Shown here piece by piece: positions 34,927 to 61,934 of a stretch of DNA of 64,000 nt (position 1 is its first letter; each line of letters begins with the position of its first letter). The stretch is taken from assembly GCA_044226515.1 (NCBI GenBank), contig JBGAGX010000011.1, positions 31,085-95,084 on the forward strand. Reading direction: 5' to 3'. Made by a program: the position numbers and the translations under genes. Source of the stretch: Flavobacteriales bacterium. Its GTDB lineage: Bacteria; Bacteroidota; Bacteroidia; Flavobacteriales_F; PHOS-HE28. Below the pieces are notes generated by a model. The model made no database searches, was not told the origin of the DNA, and was given only the letters and a program-made list of their open reading frames with translations.

Positions 34927-37335
34927 TCAGTACTTGATGAAGCGTGCGGCTTGGGTTCCTTGCTCGTTCACCGTGCGCAACACATAGGCACCCGGGGCGA
35001 GCGATCGGACAAGAATGCGTGCCGAGCTACCGCTCGTTCTGCCGCTTAGGACGAATGTTCCGGCTGCATCCGTGATCGTCCATGGTGTTCCAAGGGATAA
35101 CCCTTGGCCGGAGAGGAAAAGCTCATCCGATACCGGGTTGGGTGAAAGCCGGAACTGGTCATTGGGCACCGACTCCATGCTCGCTGTTTGATCGACCACG
35201 AACACGGCCGGGGCGGTGATGACCGGCTCGTTGAAGTCGAAGTAGATGTTCGCGGAGTTGCTCACGGAATCACCGACCTGAAGCGATTGATCCGGTCGGA
35301 CCCGGAAACGCACGAAACCATGGCTGCCAGGCTCATCAGCTGTGCTGCCGGGCAGCATGATGTCGTCGAAGACGAAGCTGGCGACCCGGCCATGGATGCT
35401 CCAGGTCATGGGGTGACTGAAGCCCAGCACCTCGAGCGTACCGACCTCGAGATCCGTGCTGAGGGTATCCGTGATCACCACTCGGGCGGCCAGGAAGTTG
35501 CCGGTATTCTGGAAGCGAATGGTGTAGGTAACAGGCGTGCCCAAGGCCACCTCGTCCGGGGATAGGACCGAGGGCGACACCTGCTTGTCATTCGGATCAA
35601 AGGCCCCGACCACGGAGCCTTGAAAAACCATGCTGTTGTCGGCAGGTACCAGATCGCCAGCGATCGGCAACACCACCACTTGTTGACTGAAAGGTGTACC
35701 GAACTGGACGACTTCGGTATGCACAAGGACCTTGATCGTGACCCATGCCCCAGGCTGAAGTGTGCTGAAAGACCACTCGCAGATCTGGCCGCTTTGGAAG
35801 GAAGGCGTAAGATCACTGCTGATGAACGAACAGACCGTATCCAAGGTGAGCGTCGCGGTCGCGGTCACAGCCACCGTTCCTGTGTTTCGGACCACCAGCC
35901 ACAGGTTATTATCGAACCCGGACCACGCATGGTCTTGCACCACCTCCACGCGGATGTCCTGCATACCGGGAATGTTCACATATCCGAAATCGTTCAGGCT
36001 GTCCTGATCGGCTGGCGCGAGCAGGTTGGCAGTATGCGCCAATGGAGCCACCGAAGATGAGTAGGAGCTGGGAGATGCAGTGATGGTGTATGCCCCAGGA
36101 CCCGCGGCGGCCTGGTAGAAACCAGCAGCATCGCTCCAGACCGAACCGAGATCCGGCTGAAGGTCCACCTGGCTGTATGGTTGCGAAGGCTCCCCTAAGT
36201 CACGAACGCCATTCGCATTCAGGTCCTGGTAAGTGGTCCCAGTGATCCTTGGTGTGACACAAGCCGGACCATAAATGCTGCAAGGACGGCTACGCATCCA
36301 GACGGGGTAAAGTGTGAAAGCGTTCGTTGGGTAGTTGGGTATGCAATCAAATCCATTGAACTCCACATAGACGATCATGCTATCATGAAGCCAAGGCAAG
36401 CAGGTCACCAGCGGGCAACTTGCAACCTCAAGCACACCCAATCGAGGCGGTAAAGGGTCCGGGATCTCCTGGATCAGTGGCGAGGAATGAACACCCAGAA
36501 AACCAAGGGTCGCATTCAAACCGCCTATTGAATCAAGGCCTGCCAATTGATCCAAGTACAAAAAAGAACAGGAGTCCGGCAGAGGTGGCAACGTGCCGGT
36601 CAGACCAGGCAAGATCCGTAGATCAATCTCCCGCAACGAATCGGACCATGTGGGCCAGGTGTTGAACAGGGGCAAATACCAAAGCCTCAATTGCCGGAGC
36701 GTCTGAGGGATCCACGGCAACGCGGTGACCAGCGGACAGTTCTCTATCGCGAGCGACTCGATTCCGACCGGCAGTGCCGGTGGTCCGCTGAACTGCGGAG
36801 CATTGGCCACCCGCAGACCACGCAATGAGCCGGGCAGGGCAGGAAGTTGGACCAGGTTGGACATTTGATCGAGACCCAGGGACTCCAGCTCGGGAGGTAG
36901 CGTGCCGATGGTATCGACCCCGCATCGGTAAAGGCCCATTACCTGGAGCTTGGGCGGCAGGTTCGGCAACGAAGTGAGTTCCTCATAGTCCTCCATCCAC
37001 AACGTTCGAAGCGAGTCTGGAAAAGCCAGGATGGTCGCCAAGCTGAATGCATCATCACTGGACCCCATGCTCAAGTGCCTGCAATTGGGCAGCGCCTCGA
37101 ATCCGGTCAGGTCATAGCCGCTCCAGGTCATTATGCTGAAAGAAGTATCAGCCAGAATGTCCGGATCACTCGGATCGAACCATCCGTTCGCATCCACACA
37201 GGTGGCTGAGTAGGATGTGAGCCAGTTCCGCAGGTTGGTGTCCGGAATGAAAACCAACTGGGCGAGGCCGCTATGCCACACGCCCACCAAGAACAGGGCG
37301 AGCAAAAGGATCCTGCGACAGGATGATGGAACCAT
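34927..37335 (-). CDS. LRR-like repeat secreted protein with DPNDK module and T9SS type-A CTD
   Basis: Signal 'MVPSSCRRILLLALFLVGVWHSGLAQ'. Repeated 'LP.LP..L..L' leucine-rich segments. 'GAFDPNDKQVSPS...TYTIRFQNTGNFLAARVVITD'. C-terminus 'FRLSPNPVSDELFLSG...GAYVLRTVNEQGTQAARFIKY'. Confidence 0.7.
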   Translation of the reverse strand: MVPSSCRRILLLALFLVGVWHSGLAQLVFIPDTNLRNWLTSYSATCVDANGWFDPSDPDILADTSFSIMTWSGYDLTGFEALPNCRHLSMGSSDDAFSLATILAFPDSLRTLWMEDYEELTSLPNLPPKLQVMGLYRCGVDTIGTLPPELESLGLDQMSNLVQLPALPGSLRGLRVANAPQFSGPPALPVGIESLAIENCPLVTALPWIPQTLRQLRLWYLPLFNTWPTWSDSLREIDLRILPGLTGTLPPLPDSCSFLYLDQLAGLDSIGGLNATLGFLGVHSSPLIQEIPDPLPPRLGVLEVASCPLVTCLPWLHDSMIVYVEFNGFDCIPNYPTNAFTLYPVWMRSRPCSIYGPACVTPRITGTTYQDLNANGVRDLGEPSQPYSQVDLQPDLGSVWSDAAGFYQAAAGPGAYTITASPSSYSSSVAPLAHTANLLAPADQDSLNDFGYVNIPGMQDIRVEVVQDHAWSGFDNNLWLVVRNTGTVAVTATATLTLDTVCSFISSDLTPSFQSGQICEWSFSTLQPGAWVTIKVLVHTEVVQFGTPFSQQVVVLPIAGDLVPADNSMVFQGSVVGAFDPNDKQVSPSVLSPDEVALGTPVTYTIRFQNTGNFLAARVVITDTLSTDLEVGTLEVLGFSHPMTWSIHGRVASFVFDDIMLPGSTADEPGSHGFVRFRVRPDQSLQVGDSVSNSANIYFDFNEPVITAPAVFVVDQTASMESVPNDQFRLSPNPVSDELFLSGQGLSLGTPWTITDAAGTFVLSGRTSGSSARILVRSLAPGAYVLRTVNEQGTQAARFIKY

Positions 37336-41923: not shown

Positions 41924-42472
41924 ATGAAGAAGTTCCTGAAATGGTCGCTCATCGCCGTGGGCAGCCTGCTGATCCTGGCCTTCATCGCGTTCAAGTTCCT
42001 GCAGTACAACACCAAGAAGGCGAGCCCGGAGGACACGGTGGTGTACGACCAGGGCGGGCTGCGCATGGAGGTCTTCTACAACCGGCCCGGCAAGAAAGGC
42101 CGCGTGATCTTCGGCGGCCTGGTGCCCTACGGCAAGGTGTGGCGCACGGGGGCCAACGAGGCCACCACCTTCGAGACCAACAAGGACCTGGTGATCGGTG
42201 GCACCGCGTTGCCGGCCGGCAAGTACACGCTGTGGACCATCCCCGGCGAGGCCGAATGGACGGTGATCTTCAACAAGAAGATGTACTCCTGGGGTGTGGA
42301 CTGGAACAGCCAGCCCAGCCGCCTGCCCGAGCACGACGCCCTGCGCGTGGTGGTGCCCGTGGAGCACGGCACGGCCCCGGTGGAGCTGTTCACCATCGCC
42401 TTCCAGTCCGCCCCCCTGGGCATGACGCTGGATTGGGATGACGTGCGCATCACCGTGCCGATGGCGCAGTAA
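41924..42472 (+). CDS. DUF2911 domain-containing protein
   Basis: ATG at 41924 ('MKKFLKWSLIAVGSLLILAF'). '...VFYNRPGKKGRVIFGGLVPYGKVWRTGANEATTFETNKDLVIGG' matches the DUF2911 family. Confidence 0.75.
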   Translation: MKKFLKWSLIAVGSLLILAFIAFKFLQYNTKKASPEDTVVYDQGGLRMEVFYNRPGKKGRVIFGGLVPYGKVWRTGANEATTFETNKDLVIGGTALPAGKYTLWTIPGEAEWTVIFNKKMYSWGVDWNSQPSRLPEHDALRVVVPVEHGTAPVELFTIAFQSAPLGMTLDWDDVRITVPMAQ

Positions 42473-42517
42473 GTGCATTTGTGCACGACTTCAGGACACG
42501 CATTAGAGCAGCAAGGG

Positions 42518-43204
42518 TTATTCCCAAATCTCGTACTTCAGAAAGAACGCAAAGCTCAGAAACGGACTTGGCTGATCGTAATGCGATTCAGTGGTGTAGT
42601 AGGAAATGACACCACCTTCCAGTCTGTTCACAATGTATGAAGCGGAGACGAAATTGCTCCGATACTTGAAGTCGCCCTCAGTGGATACTGCGATTTGCTG
42701 CCCATTCGACAGCGTGTCGACCGTGGTGATCAGATAGGCGCTCCCGCGCCTCATGTAACCCAATCCGATCCCCACCCTTATCTCGCGCTCATCCCCGACC
42801 GGGAACCGGCCATTGATGGATAGAAGATGATCGGTGGTGATCGCGTTCACAGAACGTTTGATACCGGATGTGAGGTCGAAATCATAGTACAAGTGCCCAT
42901 ACTTGAAGCGAGAGCCATAGGCGACTTCGATCCGATCCTGAAAAATGTTCTTCCGCAGGTCGAAACCCACGGCAGGACCTGTTAGCTGCAGGTCTTGAGA
43001 ATAGACCCGATAGGGAACGCTTGATGTATAGGTTGTAACTCCTTGAGTGTATACCGGAGCTATCCGATACTCCAGTACGGCGTTGATGGCAAGCCAATGC
43101 GCCCCGTCCTGAGCCAAGAGACTGGATCCAAGGCAGGAGAATCCAGCCGAAGTGAAGATGACGGTTCTGCGCCAGCAGTTACGCGCGAACATGGAACTTT
43201 TCAA
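42518..43204 (-). CDS. putative outer-membrane beta-barrel protein, located in an AT-rich (about 47 % GC) islet
   Basis: Alternating hydrophobic pattern typical of beta-strands, signal-like N-terminus. GC about 47 % versus about 68 % in flanking genes. The C-terminus does not end in the usual aromatic residue, so the family is uncertain. Confidence 0.45.
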   Translation of the reverse strand: MKSSMFARNCWRRTVIFTSAGFSCLGSSLLAQDGAHWLAINAVLEYRIAPVYTQGVTTYTSSVPYRVYSQDLQLTGPAVGFDLRKNIFQDRIEVAYGSRFKYGHLYYDFDLTSGIKRSVNAITTDHLLSINGRFPVGDEREIRVGIGLGYMRRGSAYLITTVDTLSNGQQIAVSTEGDFKYRSNFVSASYIVNRLEGGVISYYTTESHYDQPSPFLSFAFFLKYEIWE

Positions 43205-43352
43205 TAGTCCTCAAGAGTTACTCCAACCTACCAGTTATCGAAAGTAAAGTTCGCAGCCGCACTAGGGTATTGACCGCCCAAGATACGTGCCATCCAGCGG
43301 CCTTTCAAGTAAGCGTCATCGGAGTAGTTTCGTGCCACATTCCATCCCTGCC

Positions 43353-56650: not shown

Positions 56651-57778
56651 ATGCGCATCGCCATCAACACCCGCCTGCTGCTCCCCGGCAAGCTCGAGGG
56701 CATCGGCTGGTTCGCGCACGAGACGCTGAAGCGCATCACCCGGGCGCATCCGGAGCACACCTTCCTCTTCCTCTTCGACCGGCCCTACGACCAGCGGTTC
56801 GTGTACGGTGCGAACGTGACCCCCCTGGTGGTGCCGCCGCCCACCCGCCATCCCCTGCTCTACCGCCTGTGGTTCGGCGTGCAGGTGCCGCGCGTTCTTC
56901 GCACGCACAAGGCCGATGCCTTCGTCTCGCCCGACGGCTTCCTGAGCCTGGGCACCACTGTGCCGCAACTGCCCGTGGTCCACGACCTCAACTTCGAGCA
57001 CTACCCGTCGGACCTGCCACCGGCCTACAGCCGCTACTACCGCCACTTCTTTCCGCGCTTCGCCCGCAAGGCGGCGCGCATCGTCACCGTGTCGGCCTTC
57101 TCCAAGCAGGACATCGTGGACCGATACGCCGTTCCTGCGGAGCGCATCGACGTGGTGCACAACGGCGTGAGCGAGGTGTACGTGCCGGTACCTGCGGCGG
57201 AGCGTGAGGACGTGCGCGCGCGTCTCACCGGTGGTGCGCCCTACCTAATCTGCGTGGGCTCCATGCACGCCCGCAAGAACGTGGCGCGCCTGCTGCTGGC
57301 CTTCGACCGGCTGGCGGAAGAGCGCCCCGACCTGCGGCTGGTGTTCGTGGGCGAGCGCATGTTCCGCGACCCCCGGATGGACGAGGCTTGGGCGCAGGTG
57401 CGGCACAAGGACCGCGTGGTGTTCACCGGCCGCCTCGACCAGCAGGACCTGCGGAACGCGCTGGGCGCCGCGCTGGGCCTGGTGTACCCGAGCTACTTCG
57501 AGGGCTTCGGGATCCCCGTGGCCGAGGCCATGAAATGCGGCGTGCCCGTGGTGGCCGCCAACGCCAGCAGCCTGCCCGAGGTGGCCGGCGAGGCGGCGGT
57601 GTACTGCGACCCCTTCGACGTGGCCGACATCACCCGCGCCATGCGTACGCTGGTGGACGATGCCGGCCTGCGCGAGCGCCTCATCGCCGCGGGCCTCGAA
57701 CGTGCGAAGCGCTACACCTGGGACCGCACCGCCGAAGGGCTGTGGGCCGCGATCGAACGCATCTTGCCGAAGCCATGA
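56651..57778 (+). CDS. glycosyltransferase family 4 (GT-B, GT1/GT4-like)
   Basis: '...[35 protein letters not shown]' EX7E-type GT4 motif. Confidence 0.85.
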
Positions 57779-58374
57779 GCCTGGCCGCGTACCACCGCAA
57801 GGGCGTGCTGGAGGCCGGTTGCGACGAGGCCGGCCGGGGCTGCCTGGCCGGTCCGGTGGTGGCCGCGGCGGTGATCCTGCCGCCCGGCGTGCGCCTGCCC
57901 GGGCTCGACGACAGCAAGAAGCTCAGCGCCGCCGACCGCGAAGCGCTGCGCCCGCTGATCATGGAGAAGGCCGTGGCCTGGGCCGTGGCCGCCGTGTCAC
58001 CCGCGGAGATCGACCGCATCAACATCCTCAAGGCCTCCTTCCTCGCCATGCACCGCGCGATCGACCAGCTGGCCACGCGGCCCGAGGCCTTGCTGATCGA
58101 CGGCAACCGCTTCACGCCCTACCCCGGCCTGCCGCACACCTGCATGATCAAGGGCGACGGCCGCTTCCGCAGCATCGCCGCAGCCAGCATCCTGGCCAAG
58201 ACCCACCGCGATGCGCTGATGGAAGCGCTGCACGCTGAGCACCCGCACTACGGCTGGGCCGTGAACAAGGGCTACCCCACGCCCGACCACCGCAAGGCCA
58301 TCGCAGCGCACGGCCCCTGCGCGCACCACCGACGAAGCTTCCGGTTGTTGCCTGAAGACCCTGTACTCTTCTGA
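57775..58374 (+). CDS. rnhB: ribonuclease HII
   Basis: ATG at 57775 overlaps the GT4 stop (ATGA). '[22 protein letters not shown]...DDSKKLS...LIDGNRF' is the RNase HII signature. Confidence 0.9.
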
Positions 58375-58539
58375 ACACCACGCAACCTCCGCCCATGCGC
58401 ACATGGGTAAATATCATTCAAGCCTTAATCCCATAAGAACTCCGGAAGCAGCCCCTGAGGCATGGAAAAATGGGCACCGACATGGATAATTTGCACAAGC
58501 CGAATGAATGAGTCTGACACACTGAGTAGCACTTGATCG

Positions 58540-59202
58540 ATGAGAAGCGAAGATGACATTCGAAAAGAGCGCTTGAATGCCATGGGTGAAGTCGCGGGCC
58601 ATTACTATCATCATCTATGGCGCGAACTCAACCTCATCCACTACAAATGGAAGGAACTAAGAGCGTTCATGGGGCAAGGACCGGAGATCACGAACTTGGT
58701 TAACGCTACCGCACCTTGGTTCTTCCACATTGCATCCAGCGCCTTATGGAAAGATGTGGTAGTGACTATCGGCGCTTTCTCAGATCCAGCGTTTACAAGA
58801 AAGCAACGGAACGCGAGCTTGCACGGCTTGCTTGATGTGCTCAAAGAGGAGGGTCGGGTAACCCAGGAGATGGGAGACGCACTGGAACAATTCAAAGCCA
58901 CATGCAAGCCTATCCGTGAACTGAGGAATAAGTGGCTAGCACACTGGGATCATGAGTTGATGTTGAATGTCACAGATCGTGAACTCACTCTTCATATGGA
59001 CCAAGTCGAAGCGTCATTTGAAGCAATGGCGTTGGTTATGAACCTTGTTGAACAAGCCTATTTCGGCAGCGTTGAGATCATCTATAACCTACCGTTACCG
59101 CCTCGAGGATCCTGCGAAGAACTGCTTTACTACTTGGAACTGGGGCACAAGACCGCCAAGGAGGAAAGACAGCGAAACCTTCGCAAGTACCCACATCAGT
59201 GA
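58540..59202 (+). CDS. orphan HEPN-like (Rx5H) protein in an AT-rich islet; candidate abortive-infection/defence protein
   Basis: GC about 47 % versus about 68-70 % in neighbours. 'IRELRNKWLAHWDHE' matches the HEPN R-x(4-6)-H motif. No family assigned with certainty. Confidence 0.5.
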   Translation: MRSEDDIRKERLNAMGEVAGHYYHHLWRELNLIHYKWKELRAFMGQGPEITNLVNATAPWFFHIASSALWKDVVVTIGAFSDPAFTRKQRNASLHGLLDVLKEEGRVTQEMGDALEQFKATCKPIRELRNKWLAHWDHELMLNVTDRELTLHMDQVEASFEAMALVMNLVEQAYFGSVEIIYNLPLPPRGSCEELLYYLELGHKTAKEERQRNLRKYPHQ

Positions 59203-59513
59203 TTCCGTTGATTTAGCCACGCCGCCAGCAGGTTCTTCTATATCCAAGCTTCAAGCGAATAGTCAAGGCGTCATCTGCTATGCCCAATATCGAACAATGA
59301 AGGCCGATGGCCCGAGGTTGAACGGCCTGTCCTTGAGATCTCGGCACCCTTGCTCCGCGCCTCCGCGTCCAGCGCCTTCGCGAAGCCTTCGGCGAAGCAA
59401 GGTCTGCGGCCTGCTCCTCTCCGCCTCCTGTTCACACCCCCGTGTGCACACGCCCACGCGCGAGGCCCGCATGCGCCCCCTTGCACGAGGCTAGTTTCGG
59501 CCGCGCAGAACGC

Positions 59514-61934
59514 ATGGCCCGCCGCATCCCCGTCATCCTGTTGCTGCTCGCGATCCTCGGGTACGCGGGCTGGACCCTGTACCGGTGGAACGGCCCCATT
59601 ACGCGCAGCGCCGATCCGTGGCGCGCCCTGCCTGCGCAGACGGCCGTGGTGGTGGAGGTGCCCGCGCCCGTGGCCACCTGGGACCGCTGGACGCACACCG
59701 CGCAGCTGTGGGACGCGATCGGGCTGGCGGAGAACGCGCGCGAACTGGACGCCTTCATGAAGCGGGTGGCCGCCCTGGCCGAGGAGCAGCCCGAACTGGT
59801 GAAGGCCCTGGACCTGGGCAGCGCGCTCCTCGCCGTGCAGGGCAATGCGGAACGCACCGCCTGCCTCGCCATCGTGCCGCTGCGCCGCGACCTGAAGGGC
59901 CTGGATGAAGTGCGGCCTGAAGGCCCTGGACCTGGGCAGGCCCTCGGTGGACCCGCGCGCGCCCGCCTGGCAAGCGGCAACGCCAACGCCGTACCCCTGA
60001 GCACCGATGCGCCCTGGAGCGGCCTCCGGTTCGCGTGGAAGGACGGGCTCGCCCTCTTGAGCAGCGATGCCGCCGTGATCGATGATGCGCTGCTGGCCCT
60101 GGGCAACGATGCCTCCCCCGTGGACAGCACCTTCCTGCGCGCCCGGCGCACCCTGGGCGAAGGCACCGACGCCCATGTGCTGGTGCACGTGGACCGCACG
60201 CGCAGGATGCTCGGCCGCTGGCTCACCAACGCCACCATCGAGGACCTCCGCTGGCCGCAGGGCTGGCTCGCGCTCGATGTGCGCGTGCGTCCCGAGGCGC
60301 TGCTGCTCGGTGGCCTGCTGTTCCCCGAGGGACCGGACACGCTGCTGCGGGCCATCACCGGAGAAGGAACGGGGCGCACCGGTGTGATGCGTGTGCTGCC
60401 CACCAGCGTCACCACCTGCCGCGTGCAGCAGGTGGCCGACCCGCAGCGTTACCTCGCCGCGCGCGGTGCGGTGAACGACAGCCTCGCCGCCGCCACCTTC
60501 CTGTGGTGCCGCGGGGTGTTCGCGCTCGCCACCGCGCCCGACACCACGGCGAGCGGCCAGCGCACCTGGGCCGTGTTCCAGACGGACGATCCCGATGCGG
60601 CCTACGAGGCGCTCGCGCGGCTCTGTCCGCCGGGCGGCTGCGACACGGTCTCGTACCGCGGCGTGCGCCTGGTGCGCATGCCCGTGCCCGGCGCCCTGAG
60701 CGCAGTGCTCGGCGATGCGTTCGACGCGCTGGAACAGCCGTGGTACGCCCTGCTCGGCGACAAGGCCGTGTGCAGCGACCGGCTCGATGCGGTGAAGGAG
60801 GCCATCGACGCCAACCTCGACGGCCGCACGCTCGCCACCGACGAGCGCAACGCCGACTTCATGCTGCAGTTCGCCACCGACGCCGCCTACACCGTGTGGG
60901 CCGATGCGGGGCAGGCCCGCGCCACGCTCCGCACCCGGCTGCGCAGCGAGGCCGCCGGCACCCTCAACGACGGGCTGCTCGGCGGCCTGGGCCGATGCCT
61001 GCTGCAGCTGGGCACCCCGGTGAACGGCGCCTACCCCGTGGCCCTGTGCCTGCAGCACGGTTCCGCCGTTCCCCAGGCCGTGGGCACCTTGTGGACCACC
61101 AACGTGGGCCGCCCCATCGAACGCGGTCCCTTCGTGGTGCGCAACCACGTGAACAACACCCGAGAGGTGGTGGTGCAGGACGACGAGCACACGCTCTACC
61201 TGCTCGGCAGCACCGGCAGCGTGCTCTGGAAGCACCCGCTCGACGGGCCGATCCTCGGGGAGGTGCGCCAGGTGGACAAGTTCAGGAACGGCAAGCTGCA
61301 GCTGCTCTTCAACACCGCCGATCGCCTGCACCTGATCGACCGCAACGGCAAGGACCTCGCGGGCTTCCCGGTGAAGCTGCCCGAGGACGCGAGCGCCCCG
61401 CTCAACGTGTTCGACTACGAGGGCACCAAGGAGTACCGCGTGCTGCTGCCCACGGTGGGCGCCAAGCTGCTCAACTACGACCTCAGCGGGCGCGCGGTGC
61501 AGGGCTGGATGCCGCCCTCCACGCCCGCGCCCTGCGAGGTGCCTGTGCAGCACCTGCGCATCCGCGCGAAGGACCACCTGGTGCTGGTGGACAAGAACGG
61601 CGGCCTCACCGTGCTCGACCGCAAGGGCGCTCCGCGCTACGCGGCGAAGGGGCAGGTGCCCTCGGGCGGCAAGCCCACGGGTCTGCGCGCAGCGCTCGAC
61701 ATCGGGCAGTGCAGCGTGCTGTGGACGGATGGCGCGGGCCAGCTCTTCGGCACCAGCTTCGACGGCAAGCGCACCGAGCCGCTCACCTCGGCCCTGGCCG
61801 AAGGCTCCAAGGGGCTCTACCTCTTCGCCGCCGGAAAGGGGCCGGTGACCGCCGACCTGAACCTCGACGGGGCGCCCGAGACCATCACCGCCAACGGCGA
61901 CGGCCGCGTGGTGGTGCAACGCGCGCAGCCATGA
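59514..61934 (+). CDS. large N-terminally anchored hypothetical protein (possibly DUF3352-like), C-terminal beta-propeller-like repeats
   Basis: ATG at 59514 ('MARRIPVILLLLAILGYAGWTLY' TM anchor). C-terminal region with repeated '...LLGSTGSVLWKHPLDG...LIDRNGKDLAGFPVKL...LVLVDKNGGLTVLDRKG' segments. Stop overlaps the trHb start. Confidence 0.6.
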   Translation: MARRIPVILLLLAILGYAGWTLYRWNGPITRSADPWRALPAQTAVVVEVPAPVATWDRWTHTAQLWDAIGLAENARELDAFMKRVAALAEEQPELVKALDLGSALLAVQGNAERTACLAIVPLRRDLKGLDEVRPEGPGPGQALGGPARARLASGNANAVPLSTDAPWSGLRFAWKDGLALLSSDAAVIDDALLALGNDASPVDSTFLRARRTLGEGTDAHVLVHVDRTRRMLGRWLTNATIEDLRWPQGWLALDVRVRPEALLLGGLLFPEGPDTLLRAITGEGTGRTGVMRVLPTSVTTCRVQQVADPQRYLAARGAVNDSLAAATFLWCRGVFALATAPDTTASGQRTWAVFQTDDPDAAYEALARLCPPGGCDTVSYRGVRLVRMPVPGALSAVLGDAFDALEQPWYALLGDKAVCSDRLDAVKEAIDANLDGRTLATDERNADFMLQFATDAAYTVWADAGQARATLRTRLRSEAAGTLNDGLLGGLGRCLLQLGTPVNGAYPVALCLQHGSAVPQAVGTLWTTNVGRPIERGPFVVRNHVNNTREVVVQDDEHTLYLLGSTGSVLWKHPLDGPILGEVRQVDKFRNGKLQLLFNTADRLHLIDRNGKDLAGFPVKLPEDASAPLNVFDYEGTKEYRVLLPTVGAKLLNYDLSGRAVQGWMPPSTPAPCEVPVQHLRIRAKDHLVLVDKNGGLTVLDRKGAPRYAAKGQVPSGGKPTGLRAALDIGQCSVLWTDGAGQLFGTSFDGKRTEPLTSALAEGSKGLYLFAAGKGPVTADLNLDGAPETITANGDGRVVVQRAQP

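Follow-up and report, generated by a model that had tools for sequence, protein, structure and literature searches.

Between the host gene rnhB and a gene encoding an 806-aa protein, the 64-kb window analysed in this study (the whole stretch of DNA, to which all positions refer) contains an islet of low GC content with one intact gene. This locus raises the question of whether the islet represents an acquired, single-gene abortive infection module of an undescribed type, as a sequence-only reading had proposed, or a gene type that is already known. The 220-aa open reading frame (ORF) reported in that reading was recovered at full length from the ORF list (58540-59202 including the stop codon, plus strand, ATG start), and its product matches the Pfam family HEPN_AbiU2 (PF18734) with an E-value of 4.4e-17 and 62.6 bits (gathering cutoff 26.8), the match covering residues 21-177 of the protein and model positions 6-175 of 193. 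A precomputed database annotation of the protein also gives PF18734. Judging from these matches, together with the homologue search and the AF2 model described below, the 220-aa protein almost certainly belongs to the HEPN_AbiU2 family, and the AbiU2-like HEPN character that had been suggested for it is thereby borne out. The family reportedly owes its name to AbiUii (AbiU2) of Lactococcus lactis, a protein associated with the 2001 work of Dai et al.

When 1.84 billion cluster representatives were searched exhaustively with phmmer, 1708 of them proved to be related at E≤1e-3, of which 454 passed the stricter limit of E≤1e-10. The nearest family representative is 38% identical to the 220-aa protein; the total of approximately 1700 AbiU2-family clusters refers to clusters counted at 50% identity. 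Among 5.8 billion proteins, a word-indexed search returned the protein itself as its sole match, in a single exact copy. Scans of the protein against PADLOC, NCBIfam and PHROGs yielded no matches, and querying the PDB by sequence, whether with the protein itself or with a profile of its family, produced nothing meaningful and no solved AbiU2-family structure. It is because these searches are empty that the protein looks like an orphan in defence catalogues and that annotators label members of the family ‘hypothetical protein’. The claim that the gene is of a type not in standard catalogues does not hold, as the family has a Pfam entry, was defined in 2013 by Anantharaman et al. (PMC3710099), comprises the above number of cluster representatives, and is missing solely from libraries devoted to defence systems or to protein naming (PADLOC, NCBIfam). 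The notion of an undescribed system has to be abandoned likewise, since the gene falls in this already catalogued family, of which it is a divergent yet complete member.

The putative catalytic motif highlighted at the outset (ELRNKWLAHWDHE) is present, in the form of an Rx5H HEPN motif, R129-N-K-W-L-A-H135 (58924-58944, plus strand; R129 codon at 58924-58926, H135 codon at 58942-58944). R129 and H135 are, along with G20, invariant in an alignment of 63 family members, while conservation reaches at least 90% at G16, L26, W37, N55, A58, F62, D82, N91, A134 and D137; all 13 of these family-conserved positions are retained in the window protein. The profile search, which had been suggested as a check, led to a HEPN family with an invariant R/H pair.

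The AF2 model, built with the family alignment (pLDDT 94.6, pTM 0.87), is an all-helical four-helix bundle (helices at residues 17-44, 59-80, 109-133 and 153-175), in which residues 81-108 form an insert between the second and third helices; in this model R129 lies where core helix 3 ends, with H135 in the subsequent loop. HEPN domains have been described as four-helix up-down bundles with a frequent insert between helices 2 and 3 (PMC3710099), and the motif position, the polar residue following the arginine (N130) and the helix 2-3 insert, as modelled, agree with that description. The predicted fold alone is weak evidence for a HEPN protein, because structural matches to HEPN are intermixed with those to generic and designed four-helix bundles, and a Foldseek search against PDB and viral structures returned no match at E≤1e-3.

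Having placed the gene in a known family, we turn to its position in this genome. The reported composition drop is real, positions 58375-59330 having a GC content of 49.8% compared to a window mean of 66.1% (standard deviation of 3.4% for 956-bp windows), which makes this stretch the GC minimum of the 64-kb window at approximately 4.9 standard deviations under the mean; the originally quoted figure of approximately 47% was slightly low. The 200-bp windows flanking the islet range from 0.67 to 0.77 in GC, and the gene itself has a GC content of 49.5% with a third-position value (GC3) of 0.56, as opposed to 0.92 in each neighbouring gene. On the left, rnhB (57775-58374, plus strand; 70.7% GC) encodes RNase HII (Pfam PF01351, E=1.1e-40) with 97% amino acid identity to the product of the closest relative, locus L003. 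The right flank is formed by the 806-aa host gene (59514-61934, plus strand; 72% GC), which displays weak DUF3352 and PQQ-like beta-propeller matches and adjoins rnhB in relatives also. Two minor features of these flanking genes may be mentioned here. A weak Pfam hit of RNase HII (57775-58371) to the Acb2/Tad1 hairpin domain stays below threshold (E=0.04; 14.6 bits, cutoff 27) and is most likely due to chance, and the 5' part of the 806-aa gene contains a 22-nt exact direct repeat (tgaaggccctggacctgggcag) at 59800-59821 and 59918-59939 (spacing 118 nt) that could be a true duplication or an assembly quirk.

Alignment with L003 and with a further locus (L002), combined with local alignments and GC values, delimits a window-specific inserted segment of 976 bp with approximately 50% GC (58377-59352), standing where L003 has 81 bp of unrelated spacer. 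The stop codon of rnhB occupies 58372-58374 and homology to L003 is lost at 58376/58377, i.e. 2 nt past the stop, in agreement with the original observation that the shift starts at the rnhB stop codon. Homology picks up again at 59353, within approximately 20 nt of the right end first assigned (59330), and the portion of the segment with foreign composition probably ends near 59322. The gap between rnhB and the 806-aa gene amounts to 1139 bp in this window, compared to 66-275 bp in the 11 loci where rnhB is followed by the 806-aa gene. Both rnhB and a conserved 161-bp block ahead of the 806-aa gene are spared by the insertion. This block (59353-59513) is near-identical in L003 and holds 39 consecutive identical bases (GCGCCTTCGCGAAGCCTTCGGCGAAGCAAGGTCTGCGGC) as well as a 12-nt tandem repeat; its conservation is unusually high for intergenic DNA, and it may represent a regulatory element.

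Six Flavobacteriales MAG loci, recovered via the 806-aa protein, share the gene order GT4 glycosyltransferase-rnhB-806-aa gene, and the AbiU2 gene is absent in all six. The L003 flanks are collinear with the window on both sides at 83-93% nucleotide identity, and blastn of the islet against L003 gave no match. When the AbiU2 HMM was applied to 86 rnhB-anchored loci (the six relatives and 80 metagenome loci), none contained the gene (0/86), and inspection of the junction in relatives, another of the proposed checks, revealed no native-GC copy.

An abrupt composition change at either end, in a sequence whose source is probably a MAG as its relatives are MAGs, could also arise if the islet were an assembly or binning chimera that is not truly joined to its flanks. 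The collinearity of L003 with both flanks argues against such an artefact, and an independently assembled Logan contig (SRR28480388_135314, from run SRR28480388; 1385 bp) is 100% identical to positions 58134-59518, includes rnhB sequence and the start of the 806-aa gene, and crosses both junctions. As this contig spans both junctions, a chimeric join produced by binning can be dismissed; an assembly chimera is ruled out on the same grounds, and we assign this explanation practically no probability. The islet is very likely a lineage-specific, horizontally acquired insertion, and the claim that the gene was acquired is sustained: it is foreign to the locus, missing in all syntenic relatives, and unadapted to its host in GC3. 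The unameliorated GC3 and the absence of the islet from a relative as close as L003 suggest that the acquisition was recent, and the composition suggests a donor of lower GC content.

With regard to the mode of entry, neither a recombinase nor an integrase ORF is present in the islet, and no integrase is encoded in the conserved flanks; ORF, Rfam and tandem-repeat searches of the islet uphold the initial statement that antitoxin, integrase and recombinase are all lacking from it. Since no recombinase came along, illegitimate recombination or mobilisation in trans would be the options for entry. A repeat search identified an imperfect inverted repeat near the islet ends, of which the left arm (CAACCTCCGCCCAT; 58383-58396) pairs with the right arm (ATGGCCCGAGGTTG; 59307-59320) at 12 of 14 positions (p=0.009 when compared with shuffles and 0.05 when compared with zone pairs of equal spacing drawn from the window). 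Elsewhere in the 64-kb window the 14-nt motif does not occur above chance. As proof of a mobile element the repeat was therefore rejected, its significance being marginal and its motif not recurring in the window. The pentamer TGAAC at 59319-59323, a candidate target-site duplication, repeats the 5-mer found at the left junction (58372-58376); like the empty site of L003, it has GG directly after it. The 5-mer recurs by chance in 15% of trials, for which reason it was not accepted as an established duplication, and the 7-mer TGAACGG, chosen post hoc, in 1.5%.

The palindrome noted at the left boundary (cccatgCGCAcatggg) does exist, at 58392-58407, one base away from where it had been placed. 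RNA folding extends it to a hairpin at 58391-58408 (plus strand) with six Watson-Crick pairs, one G-U pair and a 4-nt loop, situated 17 nt past the rnhB stop and not followed by a T-run. It is not above chance, because hairpins of this type occur at 2.2 per kb in the window and are present in 7% of 40-nt zones, and the boundary significance attached to it was consequently dropped; as a common hairpin type without a T-run, it was rejected as a boundary signal and as a terminator alike. At the 3' end of the islet the heptamer GTTGAAC (59317-59323) resembles GTTRRRY, and no attC-like site was found there, the tail having no stable hairpin and, by eye, no matching R''.

Taken at face value, the terminal features could be read as those of a 950-bp, non-autonomous ‘defence minicassette’, in which an AbiU2 gene with its own leader would have imperfect inverted repeats of 14 nt and a 5-bp duplication (TGAAC) at its borders, would be moved in trans by a recombinase, and would encode a protein that constitutes a complete sensor-plus-RNase immune system. 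We consider this very improbable; if true, single-gene defence genes would have a new vehicle other than the integron.

The 163-bp leader of the islet contains one promoter-like site, TGGAAA-16 nt-GATAAT (58463-58490, plus strand), which is the sole candidate of a consensus scan in the leader and is located approximately 50 nt 5' of the ATG. One site compares to 0.6 expected in shuffles and is not significant, and the consensus used excludes Bacteroidota promoters. A rival reading is that the gene is a neutral, recent passenger, silent or decaying and without function in this genome: neither a promoter nor a terminator reaches significance, the unameliorated GC3 implies a recent arrival, the gene is confined to one lineage, and it occurs in one exact copy among the 5.8 billion proteins searched. 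We regard this as distinctly unlikely, given that the ORF is full-length with every family-conserved residue kept, that the gene has its own leader with a -10-like GATAAT box, and that rnhB and the 161-bp block of the next gene are undamaged.

There is no partner gene or RNA antitoxin in the islet. Apart from ORFs overlapping the gene, no ORF longer than 28 aa was detected in it; an Rfam scan gave no match, tandem repeats are absent from 58377-59352, and the predicted RNA folding of leader and tail is no stronger than that of shuffled sequences (z=+1.05 and +1.31). Neither MmeI C-terminal nor ADP-ribosylglycohydrolase remnants, which would correspond to the neighbours of the nearest homologues, were found in the islet. 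The genes on either side are housekeeping genes, and the locus is not part of a defence island.

Such isolation is not peculiar to this locus. Other AbiU2-family members (L009-L016) stand alone between housekeeping genes, one clade is flanked by an Asp/Glu racemase gene and PAS or GrpB genes, and two copies are carried on conjugative Xanthomonas plasmids. No partner gene recurs across the AbiU2-family loci examined, and lone status is common enough to be called normal for the family, with no obligatory partner. Other members do keep company that may be relevant to function. The L008 member follows a 1499-aa Eco57I-type (type IIG) restriction-modification (R-M) gene, and the L018 member lies between two MmeI C-terminal fragments and adjoins a DUF559 gene. 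These two fragments (2-184 and 807-968) are homologous, and the arrangement suggests that the L018 gene arrived by insertion into type IIG R-M genes or by recombination between them. In L019 (736-1545), the family member overlaps a downstream ADP-ribosylglycohydrolase gene by 14 nt, possibly a two-gene variant of the AbiU2 family. The listing of AbiU2 with ‘R-M operons’ (PMC3710099, Table 1) fits the R-M neighbours seen here.

Both the frequent proximity to R-M genes and the overlap in L019 speak for a different role, in which the HEPN protein would be regulatory or accessory, or an orphaned toxin-like remnant, modulating a nuclease or R-M system elsewhere in the genome and providing no defence alone. 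Pointing the other way are the islet and its conserved flanks, which offer no partner, the several members that are alone among housekeeping genes, and the strict conservation of the R/H pair, which favours an enzyme over a pure regulator. Findings from other bacteria, which form a sparse and mixed record for AbiU2, bear on the same alternative. In L. lactis, AbiUi alone confers modest resistance and delays phage transcription, and the addition of AbiUii (AbiU2) lowers this resistance (PMC13064643). Because resistance fell when it was added to AbiUi, AbiUii resembles a modulator rather than an effector of defence, and the same review, from 2026, equates AbiU with AbiUi alone. An AbiU2-domain integron cassette of Vibrio mimicus has been linked to resistance to phages T4 and T7, and the failure to clone this cassette alone may also be counted in favour of an accessory role; its phenotype was assigned by prevalence (94% of survivors) in a three-cassette clone (bioRxiv 10.64898/2026.03.17.712381). 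All things considered, we view an accessory or remnant status of the window protein as unlikely.

Our preferred reading is that the islet is a recently acquired single-gene insertion encoding an HEPN_AbiU2 protein that would act as a phage-triggered RNase, and we hold this to be probable, with some reserve. By analogy with HEPN biology in general, the protein would homodimerise, the two R/H pairs forming a metal-independent RNase site, and the enzyme would be latent in uninfected cells. Phage infection would activate the RNase, which might then cut host or phage RNA (tRNA, rRNA or mRNA), and this cleavage would block translation and abort the infection. Sensor and effector would both reside within one 220-aa protein, rendering an antitoxin unnecessary. 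HEPN RNases are characterised by metal-independent endonucleolytic cleavage that leaves 2',3'-cyclic phosphate ends. The R/H residues are catalytic in the HEPN proteins RNase L, PrrC and RloC, which are all metal-independent RNases (PMC3710099). The literature on the family (PMC3710099, PMC13064643) contains no report of biochemical RNase activity for any AbiU2-family protein, and L. lactis abiU2 is non-toxic in E. coli (PMC3985639), which fits a latent enzyme. The T4 and T7 resistance linked to the V. mimicus cassette likewise counts, indirectly, in favour of a defence function. For the 220-aa protein, a defence RNase role drawn from these analogies appears slightly better than an even prospect.

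Comparison with named systems places the locus within its family while setting it apart in context. It resembles the HEPN_AbiU2 family in its near-complete profile match, its length class (approximately 205-230 aa), its R-N-x-x-x-A-H motif and its all-helical model. It differs in that the window protein is at most 38% identical to any member, that AbiU1/AbiUi, Sel1-repeat and R-M neighbours are missing, and that the gene is a lone insertion among housekeeping genes in a high-GC Flavobacteriales genome. In contrast to the lactococcal AbiUi and AbiUii locus, the abiU1 (AbiUi) nuclease gene, which is the resistance component there, is absent beside the window gene, the neighbours of which encode RNase HII and the 806-aa protein. 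The V. mimicus MB461 cassette (HNPBCG_15845), likened here by description, is similarly a small single AbiU2-domain gene on a compact unit without its own recombinase for which abortive infection has been proposed; however, it is a cassette with attC boundaries that belongs to a chromosomal integron, whereas the window islet has no integron or attC-like structure.

Among the remaining lactococcal systems, AbiD/AbiD1, AbiF, AbiJ and AbiV are described (PMC13064643) as HEPN effectors that work alone, share a conserved R/H site and are presumed latent until infection, with RNase action reported for AbiV. These are separate HEPN families, and neither Pfam nor PADLOC assigns the window protein to any of them. 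HEPN-MNT type II/VII toxin-antitoxin systems (PDB 8xdj, 7ae2 and 5yep) possess an MNT nucleotidyltransferase antitoxin, for which there is no adjacent gene at the window locus; the window protein is approximately 80 residues longer than these toxins and shows 4-8% identity to them in structural alignments. Unlike type III toxin-antitoxin systems (ToxIN/AbiQ-like), the window gene has no adjacent tandem RNA repeats.

The islet is otherwise an ordinary horizontal acquisition of a known gene type. Its interest lies in the fact that the AbiU2 family is large, yet almost uncharacterised, with an ambiguous role for its founding member. The locus represents a clean natural experiment, in which a partnerless gene occupies a conserved housekeeping junction and relatives with an empty site are available for comparison, and it is a convenient candidate for asking whether a lone AbiU2-family HEPN protein suffices for phage defence.

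Two further regions of lowered GC content were observed in the window. A second islet (42450-43300) with approximately 52% GC, compared to 66%, contains one ORF (42518-43204, minus strand) encoding a 228-aa protein, for which no Pfam match was obtained at E≤0.1. It was rejected as an AbiU2 paralogue, the two proteins being unrelated, and it has no ends resembling the repeats of the first islet. The third region (34927-37335, minus strand; approximately 57% GC) corresponds to an 802-aa gene with DUF7619 and Por_Secre_tail, the latter being a type IX secretion sorting domain.
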